IMG/VR virus record: IMGVR_UViG_2534681835_000032
Coordinates: 1-14,811 of that record
From: a virus
Lineage: Duplodnaviria > Heunggongvirae > Uroviricota > Caudoviricetes
Reading direction: 5' to 3' (one strand)
Length of the DNA: 14,811 nucleotides
The position numbers and the translations under genes were made by a program. The notes below the pieces were generated by a model that worked only from the letters and a program-made list of their open reading frames with translations, had not been told where the DNA came from and searched no databases. Shown one piece after another: positions 3,851 through 4,672 of the stretch (its first letter is position 1; every line of letters starts with the position of its first letter).

Positions 3851-4639
3851 TTACCCCCTGAAGCCTGGCGGGATCGCACTGTCCGGCAACGAGACGGTGT
3901 TAACCTGTCGGAGCAACGTCTCAGGCCGAACACCTTTCGGTACGAACAAGCCCTGGTATTCATTGGCGATGCTGTGTCGAATCACCTGCTCAGGTGTAAA
4001 ACCCTGCTGACGGAATTTTTCCAGTTCCCGTATCGCCCCGTTAGCGCCCTGCTCCGTTCGAATCGGTTTTCGCAATGCCTGCCTGAACTGAACCCACTCA
4101 TGCCAGAGTGTTTCCGGCAACCAGTCAGGCAGCTCGATAGCCTCCGGCTCGAATTTTTTAGACGCTCGTTTTTGGCGAGGGGGATTTAGGGGGAGATCAG
4201 TATTTATATCTTCCTCTTCCTCTTCCTCTGGTAACGCTTTTTGATCCGTTTGTGTAACGCTGCCAGCGTTACCTTTTCGTTTCAGTTCGCGTATTTTTGT
4301 AACTCGCTCGTTTGTAACCGCCCGTTTTTTAGAGCTTTTCCCGTTATGACGTTCAAAGTTAGGTAGAGAAAGCCCACCGTCATTTTCGACCAGCCATCCA
4401 ACCTGAATTAACGCATCAGCAAAACCAGCCATAAAAGTGATGCGATCTATTGCACTTTTTGTAACGCCGCGAGCGTTACAATCTGCATTACCGTCTATCA
4501 TTTGTTGATCCGCCCATGCCCAGAAGCGAATAACCTTCCCTAATGCGGCATCTGGATCAATATTCAGAATCTCAGCAAGCCTGAATATTTCCGGCTTATC
4601 CGGCGTAATAACCTCGAGCTTTATCCAGTTTGAAGCCAT
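3851..4639 (-). CDS. ydaU: Replication initiator-like protein (YdaU/DUF1376-type), 262 aa
   Basis: Sits directly upstream of the DnaC-like gene (the lambda O position); acidic poly-Glu linker; contains iteron-like palindromes within its 5-prime half; SD AAGGTG 7 nt upstream. Confidence 0.7.
   Translation of the reverse strand: MASNWIKLEVITPDKPEIFRLAEILNIDPDAALGKVIRFWAWADQQMIDGNADCNARGVTKSAIDRITFMAGFADALIQVGWLVENDGGLSLPNFERHNGKSSKKRAVTNERVTKIRELKRKGNAGSVTQTDQKALPEEEEEEDINTDLPLNPPRQKRASKKFEPEAIELPDWLPETLWHEWVQFRQALRKPIRTEQGANGAIRELEKFRQQGFTPEQVIRHSIANEYQGLFVPKGVRPETLLRQVNTVSLPDSAIPPGFRG
4253..4272. repeat. Iteron-like palindrome GTAACGCT-N3-AGCGTTAC (copy A, inside ydaU)
   Basis: 19-bp dyad read directly; related copies at 4461-4480 and 4653-4672, a half-site at 4232-4239, and a polypyrimidine tract (4211-4230) with AT-rich DNA (4196-4210) adjacent. 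Confidence 0.45.
4461..4480. repeat. Iteron-like palindrome GTAACGCC-GCG-AGCGTTAC (copy C, one mismatch)
   Basis: Same dyad motif as copies at 4253 and 4653. Confidence 0.45.
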
Positions 4640-4652
4640 TTGTTTTCACCTT

Positions 4653-4672
4653 GTAACGCTCGCAGCGTTACA
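4653..4672. repeat. Iteron-like perfect palindrome GTAACGCT-CGC-AGCGTTAC (copy D, just upstream of ydaU start)
   Basis: Perfect dyad in the ydaT-ydaU intergenic region, 13 nt upstream of the ydaU start codon. Confidence 0.45.

Follow-up and report, generated by a model that had tools for sequence, protein, structure and literature searches.

Conserved 19-bp dyads inside a Rac-like prophage initiator gene: a candidate lambda-like replication origin

Introduction

What are the three palindromes that lie in, and just upstream of, the putative replication initiator gene of a Rac-like E. coli prophage: parts of a replication origin, or sites with some other role? We address this question using IMG/VR virus record IMGVR_UViG_2534681835_000032 (Caudoviricetes), positions 1 to 14,811; this whole 14.8-kb stretch is referred to below as the window. 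An earlier reading made from the DNA sequence alone (hereafter, the sequence-only reading) proposed that the palindromes are iteron-like binding sites for the initiator and that, with a polypyrimidine tract and AT-rich DNA nearby, they form a prophage origin following the logic of lambda ori. In lambda, 19-base-pair (bp) sites with internal dyad symmetry are situated inside gene O, in the stretch encoding the inter-domain linker, and are adjoined by a purine/pyrimidine-asymmetric AT-rich region. In lambdoid O genes (phi80, 434, P22 gene 18) the N-domain and the sites swap together, while the C-domain matches the helicase loader.

Our comparative evidence strongly supports this proposal. The dyads, together with an unpaired half-site, a purine tract and a short AT-rich patch, have a reasonable chance, clearly better than even, of constituting an origin embedded in the initiator gene. 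The N-terminal winged-helix-like domain of the initiator itself, acting as a dimer, is the most likely protein to bind the dyads.

Results

Three exact dyads in and just upstream of the initiator gene, and a candidate core

The palindrome GTAACGCNNNNNGCGTTAC (GTAACGC-N5-GCGTTAC) has exactly three matches in the window, all with zero mismatches in the 7+7 arms; we refer to them as dyads 1 to 3 in the direction of the initiator gene (Table 1). The three palindromes of the sequence-only reading are therefore genuine, its 20-nucleotide (nt) coordinates merely including a flanking T/A that extends the palindrome (TGTAAC...GTTACA). In dinucleotide-shuffled sequence only 0.07 matches are expected even when two mismatches are allowed, and none of the 200 shuffles attained three. 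If the arms are extended to 8 bp, only the copy at 4461 acquires a mismatch (one); those at 4254 and 4653 stay perfect. A repeat search recovers the same three inverted dyads, spaced at 207 and 192 bp, and detects no tandem direct repeats of the plasmid iteron type (17-22 bp). The 192-279-bp dyad spacings have no consistent helical phasing. The window contains nine exact GTAACGC heptamers, seven of which fall inside 4231-4671.

Dyad 3 has company. An unpaired half-site, a tract that is polypyrimidine on the + strand and AT-rich DNA had all been pointed out before. The half-site is there at 4231-4238, one base away from the 4232-4239 originally given; the tract does encode poly-Glu, its extent being 4209-4229 and not 4211-4230; and the AT-rich DNA, placed earlier at 4196-4210, is real (~4195-4208) but short and only mildly AT-rich. 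Read on the coding strand, the order beside the unpaired half-site is GCGTTACC-AGAGGAAGAGGAAGAGGAAGA-TATAAATACTGATC-TCCCCCTAAATCCCCC. The sites are thus directly followed by a strand-asymmetric region, a 21-nt purine run and then TATAAATA, the same adjacency as in lambda-type origins. Dyad 3 and the half-site correspond to amino acids (aa) 123-137, between the N-domain and the C-domain of the protein, which is the in-gene linker position of the lambda sites. We consider 4195-4272, comprising dyad 3, the half-site, the purine tract and the AT-rich patch, as the candidate origin core.

The dyads are constrained as DNA and not as protein-coding sequence

The sequence-only reading had itself named, as the result that would count against an origin, a lack of dyad conservation in related prophages. 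We ran this comparison, and the dyads are strongly conserved. Our set of close relatives consists of 64 unique Rac-like IMG/VR sequences with 70-100% aa identity. The minor-allele frequency in the dyad arms is 0.019, compared to 0.212 in the central 5-nt spacer, 0.158 at third codon positions and 0.195 in intergenic DNA; for arm bases that fall on third codon positions it is as low as 0.006. The central 5 nt vary freely among these relatives, including in dyad 1. The three-dyad layout (-32/-33/-44, +160, +367/+379) is present in most of the 64, with dyad 1 at -32, -33 or -44, and a few are without the upstream copy. From dyad 3 through to the AT-rich patch (+367 to ~+440), hardly any variation is seen at any codon position; the unpaired half-site 4231-4237 is invariant in all 64 and the purine tract nearly so.

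The same holds well beyond the Rac-like group. Homologues of 28-70% aa identity, from hosts with 33-68% GC, carry GTAACG-N7-CGTTAC at ~+150 and ~+350 to +380, and nearly every homologue of this GTAACG class has dyad 2, located at +147 to +160. Examples are the homologues in TL-2011b and Enterobacter phage BUCT554 (65% aa identity) and in Xanthomonas phage CP2 and Ralstonia phage QkW1 (43-48%), as well as those in dozens of environmental phages, Burkholderiales prophages and metagenome-assembled genomes, including Planctomycetes. Dyad 1 is absent from the TL-2011b, BUCT554, Xanthomonas and Ralstonia homologues.

Could the dyads be a product of chance, or a by-product of encoding a repeated G-N-A-x-x-V-T peptide? 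In the window, dyads 2 and 3 are indeed read in the same frame, and their peptides, CNARGVT and GNAGSVT, are alike. Dyad 1, however, is non-coding, and the frame of dyad 3 is not constant: it is frame 0 in TL-2011b and BUCT554 (+357, VTPTAL) and frame 1 elsewhere, including the window (GNAxxVT), frame 2 being impossible since GTAACGC would then hold a TAA stop. We also examined codon choice in 46 cases selected by their peptide, DGNxxxV[T/S], irrespective of the DNA pattern. Asn is encoded by AAC in 46 of 46 (background 88 of 170) and Val by GTT in 39 of 46 (background 174 of 365); the variable residue before Val has an NGC codon in 44 of 46, with Ser being AGC 31 times and never TCN. Coding cannot explain the dyads, because synonymous codons are fixed, dyad 3 occurs in two frames, dyad 1 is non-coding and the purine tract has a 5-nt period (see below). 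With a chance expectation of just 0.07, this explanation is effectively refuted, and the element is almost certainly under selection at the DNA level.

The protein may even have been altered by its DNA sites. Compared to TL-2011b-like homologues, the window initiator has a 4-aa insertion, DCNA (aa 53-56, window 4480-4491), which at the DNA level is a 12-bp half-site duplication yielding GTAATGC beside dyad 2. DNA-site evolution appears to have written this insertion into the initiator.

Selection on nucleic acid sequence might alternatively reflect hairpins in mRNA or single-stranded DNA, serving as a processing site, in translational control, or as a primosome-assembly or single-strand initiation (ssi) signal. 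As RNA, each dyad can form a hairpin with an 8-10-bp stem (about -11 to -12 kcal/mol; z-scores -2.5 to -3.6). In addition, dyad 1 directly adjoins the Shine-Dalgarno sequence, the initiator has a DnaT-like C-domain, and dyad 3 with its T-run is terminator-like on the antisense strand. The pattern of substitutions contradicts this. Across 147 unique sites, 81 deviations are one-sided and break pairing, 10 are still pairable and only 2 are compensatory; it is the arm sequence that is conserved, not merely its pairing. The unpaired half-sites, which have no partner to fold with, co-vary with the dyads, and there is no Rfam match. We regard a hairpin function as very improbable. As to the terminator-like element itself (dyad 3 followed by CTTTTCGTTT, 4254-4282 on the + strand, antisense to the initiator gene), one such element was found against 0.9 expected, and it is probably fortuitous.

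A family core of four half-sites, a purine run and AT-rich DNA

To define what is common to the family we used 62 diverse loci of 34-64% GC and the region around the second in-gene dyad. Their core reads GTAACG-N6-GTAACG-N7-CGTTAC-N5/6-CGTTACC-(T)AGAGAAGAGAAGAGAAGAGAAGA-TA(T)AAA, that is, four half-sites in the orientation → → ← ← at 12/13/12-bp spacing, then a purine run, then AT-rich DNA. Beginning a median of 14 nt past the dyad, the purine run is 24 nt long (median). In almost all distant homologues the unpaired half-site is CGTTACC, and in most relatives a GATATAAA-like sequence follows the purine tract. The tract itself is mostly (GAGAA)n with 4-5 repeats, translated as EEKRRE; the window has the variant (GAGGAA)3, translated as EEEEEE. 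The 5-nt period of (GAGAA)n indicates a DNA-level rather than a peptide-level repeat. The polypurine/AT-rich neighborhood, which the sequence-only reading had described in a single prophage, is therefore conserved as DNA across the family. The window core deviates from the family consensus in its weaker left-most half-site, GAAACG, and in the 23-bp spacing to the unpaired half-site.

Dyad sequence follows the N-domain

Two other clades of initiators have dyads of their own. Among the 75 unique sequences of the epsilon15-like clade, whose N-domain is 32% identical to that of the window, GTCCGC-N7-GCGGAC is located at +65 and +344, its arms having a minor-allele frequency of 0.005 compared to 0.218 at third codon positions, and the unpaired half-site beside the purine tract is GCGGACC, matching the clade's own dyad. 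A Vibrio-phage clade has GTCAC(G/A)-N5/7-GTGAC at +151 and +357. Positions in these two clades are comparable, though not identical, to those in the window, and in all classes the dyad is 19 bp overall. The neighboring genes and the C-terminal domains differ among dyad-bearing loci, and only one protein feature accompanies the dyads in every case, namely the N-domain that houses them. Because of this co-inheritance, we infer that the N-domain is the binder, and consider this assignment likely.

Both epsilon15 and Vibrio phage 1.211.B have a C-5 cytosine methylase gene overlapping the start of the initiator gene, and the dyads of these phages (GTCCGC..GCGGAC and GTCACGC..GCGTGAC) contain CG and GC steps.

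What kind of domain is it? Clustered at 50% identity, the N-domain family numbers 6,613 clusters. It has no Pfam model, and the domain invariably occupies the N-terminus. The module is found in 786 of 5,426 complete E. coli genomes (approximately one in seven). The AlphaFold2 model of the N-domain has a mean predicted local distance difference test (pLDDT) score of 68, rising to 80-93 over residues 20-40 and 60-90. It contains helices at 16-25, 29-48, 61-68 and 73-80 and then a beta-hairpin at 84-91, after which comes a conserved basic helix (HNGxSAKKRA...). The predicted fold is winged-helix-like. Two plasmid records encoding the N-domain were considered as a sign of autonomous replication and set aside, as these records resemble phage genomes.

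The N-domain, its sites and the upstream spacer are exchanged as one unit

The sequence-only reading named the initiator gene ydaU, and this is half true. Its C-terminal part (aa 139-262, 124 aa) is 80% identical to K-12 YdaU and is the only part that aligns; the N-terminal 138 aa belong to an unrelated family, with no alignment to K-12 YdaU and a probability of 0.1% in a profile comparison (hhalign) with the K-12 DUF1376 domain. The window thus has the YdaU-type C-domain and the YdaV partner in Rac synteny without the DUF1376 N-domain. It follows that conservation had to be sought among N-domain relatives, where the dyads are kept, and not among YdaU-encoding prophages as originally suggested: YdaU is the wrong family in this respect, and K-12 ydaU has other repeats. 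The K-12 MG1655 gene contains six or seven copies of GATGTTCAA(ACA) (Rac locus 4261-4578, locus numbering), most of them clustered in the linker just before an AT-rich stretch.

DNA homology between the window prophage and K-12 Rac restarts at the AT-rich/GATC/C-rich stretch, just after the AT-rich patch. The N-domain, its repeats and the upstream spacer therefore move together, and the C-domain remains with the helicase loader: the C-domain and YdaV are common to both prophages, and the N-domain, repeats and spacer differ. Such joint movement of sites and N-domain is what lambda-type origins display.

The junction invites a different interpretation, namely that the dyads are sites of a host factor or of another phage protein, or conserved recombination joints at a module boundary, and that the initiator is not directly involved. 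Lambdoid mosaics classically show conserved sequences at their module boundaries, and the conserved block of half-site, purine tract and C-rich repeat does coincide with the K-12 ydaU mosaic junction. A host factor is hard to reconcile with dyads that differ by N-domain clade within enteric hosts (epsilon15-like vs TL-2011b-like), and a recombination joint with the location of dyad 2, far from any junction. The neighboring genes, moreover, differ completely among loci. A role as a joint is plausible for the C-rich junction sequence; for the dyads, we find this set of explanations distinctly unlikely.

Dyads away from the initiator gene

Across their complete genomes, TL-2011b and epsilon15 have the dyads in the initiator gene and nowhere else, and the other 41 kb of the O111 prophage that contains the window (see below) have none. 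The epsilon15 record, which is richly annotated, lists no origin feature at the initiator-gene dyads. The Xanthomonas phages Usaquen and CP2 present another picture: each has two additional dyad clusters, one to the left and one to the right of the initiator gene at a distance of 6-8 kb. In Usaquen (10446-10488 and 26052-26094) each cluster consists of a dyad and then two CGTTAC half-sites at 12-bp spacing; in CP2 the extra GTAACGC-N5-GCGTTAC dyads are at 34142-34160 and 5976-5994. Cluster positions are equivalent in the two phages: one cluster is at the start of a leftward gene, and the other separates the lysis genes from the rightward gene that comes next. The CP2 terminase small subunit gene is ~0.7 kb beyond the cluster that follows the lysis genes, and the Usaquen initiator gene is ~0.9 kb from the divergent-transcription switch, a proximity at which gene orientation would confound any mapping of the origin by GC skew in such lytic relatives. 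In some phages, then, the protein-site pair seems to be used beyond the gene-internal locus, and the remote clusters could be secondary origins, handcuffing sites or regulatory sites.

These clusters, being at gene boundaries far from the initiator gene, count in favor of the possibility that all dyads are regulatory operators only, through which the initiator or another phage regulator autoregulates or roadblocks the operon, with the origin located elsewhere. Dyad 1 would suit such a role: it lies between the ydaT stop codon and the initiator Shine-Dalgarno sequence, so that a protein sitting there would obstruct transcription or translation, and it is present only in the temperate Rac-like clade. 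Dyads 2 and 3, by contrast, are deep within the open reading frame, and dyad 3 is always coupled to the half-site, purine tract and AT-rich patch, a combination that characterizes origins, not operators. All dyad loci have just one gene feature in common, the N-domain itself. A consensus scan of 4100-4800 detected no sigma-70-like promoter, although such scans miss weak or activator-dependent promoters. We judge a purely regulatory function to be rather unlikely. An operator role for dyad 1 is compatible with an origin in the gene: the upstream copy, 13 nt before the start ATG (4639) as correctly reported by the sequence-only reading, may double as a roadblock or autoregulatory site, an option that the same reading had allowed for.

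Organization of the locus

The coordinates of the dyads, neighboring elements and early-region genes are collected in Table 1. Window bases 3000-5600 are 100% identical to a prophage of E. coli O111:H8 strain 8E (NZ_CP077465.1), and the window corresponds to a Rac-like early region: recE/recT, kilR, a Rha-family regulator, a racR-like repressor, ydaS, ydaT, the initiator gene and ydaV. Pfam and PHROG scans are consistent with the roles assigned to these early-region genes. The initiator is annotated as a 'hypothetical protein' in the source; phrog_2509, 'replication initiation protein', matches it over the full length (1.9e-89). It matches no Pfam family even at E<=10, and searches of NCBIfam and PDB sequences yielded nothing useful. 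When tested for homology to lambda O it has no Phage_rep_O match, and the sole 'O-like' match is phrog_678 at aa 77-236. YdaV is presumed to be the partner of the initiator C-terminal domain. The weak half-sites at 4299-4318 are kept in close relatives and not in TL-2011b.

Table 1. Sequence elements and genes of the candidate origin region (window coordinates)
Feature	Position	Strand	Remarks
Dyad 1 (GTAACGCTCGCAGCGTTAC)	4653-4671		In the 77-nt ydaT-initiator spacer; 13 nt before initiator ATG (4639); abuts Shine-Dalgarno
Dyad 2 (+160 of gene)	4461-4479		Encodes C-N-A-R-G-V-T in conserved N-domain motif DGNAxxVT
Dyad 3 (+367; inter-domain linker; candidate origin-core dyad)	4254-4272		
Near half-site GTAATGC (1 mismatch)	4485-4491	-	12 bp upstream of dyad 2 in gene orientation
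Unpaired half-site GTAACGC(T), GCGTTACC on coding strand	4231-4237 (with T 4238)	+	Directly adjoins purine tract
Polypurine (GAGGAA)3 on coding strand, polypyrimidine on +	4209-4229	-	21 nt; encodes EEEEEE; candidate DNA-unwinding element
Short AT-rich patch with GATC (GATATAAATACTGATC on coding strand)	~4195-4208		
C-rich CTCCCCCTAAATCCCCC	4177-4194	-	Mosaic junction: DNA homology to K-12 ydaU restarts here
Weak half-sites GTAACTC (4299-4305) and TGTAAC (4313-4318)	4299-4318	+	Membership of the element uncertain
racR-like repressor gene	5503-5967	+	
cro-like ydaS	5123-5437	-	
cII-like ydaT	4717-5139	-	
Initiator gene (262 aa)	3851-4639	-	N-domain aa 1 to ~117, linker, YdaU/DnaT-like C-domain aa 139-262
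ydaV, DnaC/IstB-like helicase loader	3098-3844	-	IstB_IS21 and Bac_DnaA ATPase matches; phrog_50; 83% identity to K-12 YdaV

The C-rich direct repeat after the AT-rich patch is also found in K-12 ydaU (K-12 Rac locus 4631-4651, locus numbering), and its variants CCCCCTAACCCCCC and AAACCCCATATAAACCCC are present in epsilon15-like and Burkholderiales phages.

The source prophage shows signs of decay. By the annotation of the source genome, the gene in the racC position (ydaE-recE interval, window 8290-8566 region) is a frameshifted pseudogene, and several additional pseudogene fragments in the late region fit a prophage in decay. Beyond the window, the large terminase gene of the same prophage is split into two pseudogene fragments by a P4-like satellite (NZ_CP077465.1 2292463-2299084) that carries an integrase, an Icd-like protein, a primase-family protein and a single-stranded DNA-binding protein. 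Because the satellite interrupts this gene, the prophage is probably defective for packaging.

Discussion

Comparison establishes the conservation of these elements throughout the family, their co-variation with the N-domain and their exchange with it. The binder's identity, the site of unwinding, origin activity and every step of the following mechanism we infer from sequence. Upon derepression, the initiator would be made from the ydaS-ydaT-initiator-ydaV transcript. It would then occupy both the core, made up of dyad 3 and the half-site, and the more distant dyads 2 and 1, which are spaced at ~200 bp; the DNA might be looped or wrapped in the process. Opening would follow in the neighboring (GAGGAA)3/TATAAATA stretch with its strand asymmetry, and the YdaU/DnaT-like C-domain would bring the DnaC-like YdaV with host DnaB.

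How lambda-like is this arrangement? The logic of lambda ori fits, as the sequence-only reading anticipated: 19-bp dyads lie inside the initiator open reading frame at the linker, beside asymmetric AT-rich DNA, the N-domain and sites move together as a module, and the genes are in the order repressor, cro-like, cII-like, initiator, loader. The components are nevertheless different. The window initiator has no sequence relationship to the O protein (no Pfam match). Its dyads are dispersed at -32, +160 and +367, whereas lambda has four tandem iterons. The core consists of 6-bp half-sites at 11-13-bp spacing (23 bp in the window), the unwinding candidate is a (GAGAA)n or (GAGGAA)3 tract, and the loader is DnaC/IstB-like, not lambda P.

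K-12 Rac has an active origin, oriJ, according to the legend of Figure S3 in PMC3945230 and to PMC11014345, which cites Potrykus et al. 2000. This makes the orthologous gene block a replication module. The two prophages share the synteny racR, ydaS, ydaT, initiator, ydaV, with the C-domain 80% and YdaV 83% identical, and have repeats at the same place in the initiator gene. They differ in the N-domain (DUF1376 in K-12, one without a Pfam family here), in the repeats (GATGTTCAA(ACA) vs GTAACGC-N5-GCGTTAC) and in the ydaT-initiator spacer (12 nt vs 77 nt, the latter housing dyad 1). The GATGTTCAA(ACA) repeats are candidates for a sequence-level definition of the oriJ iterons.

Other replicons offer looser parallels. 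Bacillus phage SPP1 encodes the replisome organizer G38P and has oriL inside gene 38 as well as a separate oriR; its sites are direct-repeat boxes. The likeness is in the second set of sites elsewhere in the genome, similar to the remote clusters of CP2 and Usaquen. There is no detected sequence similarity between the systems, and direct-repeat boxes there contrast with 19-bp dyads here. Iteron plasmids (RepA/pi/TrfA) similarly have repeated sites of a winged-helix initiator (predicted in our case) beside an AT-rich unwinding element, and by analogy the extra site clusters could act in control. The remote Xanthomonas clusters recall either the SPP1 oriL/oriR pair or the control sites of iteron replicons.

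Several observations weigh against an origin at this position. The AT-rich patch is modest: it is only ~14 bp long, and GC content over 40 nt is 0.40-0.43 compared to ~0.52 nearby. Dyads 192-207 bp apart are not a lambda-style tandem iteron array, and the window core, with one dyad and one or two half-sites, falls short of four or more tandem iterons. No long purine tract is found beside the remote Xanthomonas clusters in the stretches read, and, given these clusters, the sites need not be origin-specific. Our conservation statistics come from related sequences that are not phylogenetically independent, though the differences they show are very large. Finally, our literature searches, whose scope did not include the older oriJ work, found no description of the dyads, the core sequence, the N-domain family, their binding or origin function; the Eru papers on Shiga toxin (Stx) phages make no mention of iterons or origins of the window type. 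A lambda-like design in this N-domain family thus seems to be undescribed in the literature. An origin embedded in the initiator gene remains our preferred explanation.

A bolder combined reading is conceivable, though we consider it doubtful. The protein motifs DGNAxSVT and EEKRRE/EEEEEE might exist mainly because the DNA is a binding site and an unwinding element; (GAGAA)n next to the unpaired half-site might, by analogy to the DnaA-trio beside a DnaA box, be a dedicated element for single-strand capture; and the dispersed dyads, together with the remote clusters of lytic Xanthomonas phages, might assemble a looped multi-site initiation or handcuffing complex unlike the lambda O-some.

What is most distinctive about this locus is the combination of dispersed dyads, a symmetric half-site core, a pentamer purine tract and DNA constraint shaping apparent protein motifs. 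It is a clear case of a DNA site dictating codon choice, an insertion and apparent protein motifs, which matters for how conservation in such genes is read. For annotation of phage origins, a 19-bp dyad followed by CGTTACC and then (GAGAA)n may serve as a signature. A defined cis-acting origin would provide a testable replicon for a module that E. coli genomes list only as 'hypothetical protein'. This replicon would be relevant to Rac-like prophages of pathogenic E. coli (O111 and O157 relatives) and to epsilon15-like, Xanthomonas and Ralstonia phages. It would extend the lambda paradigm and not overturn it.

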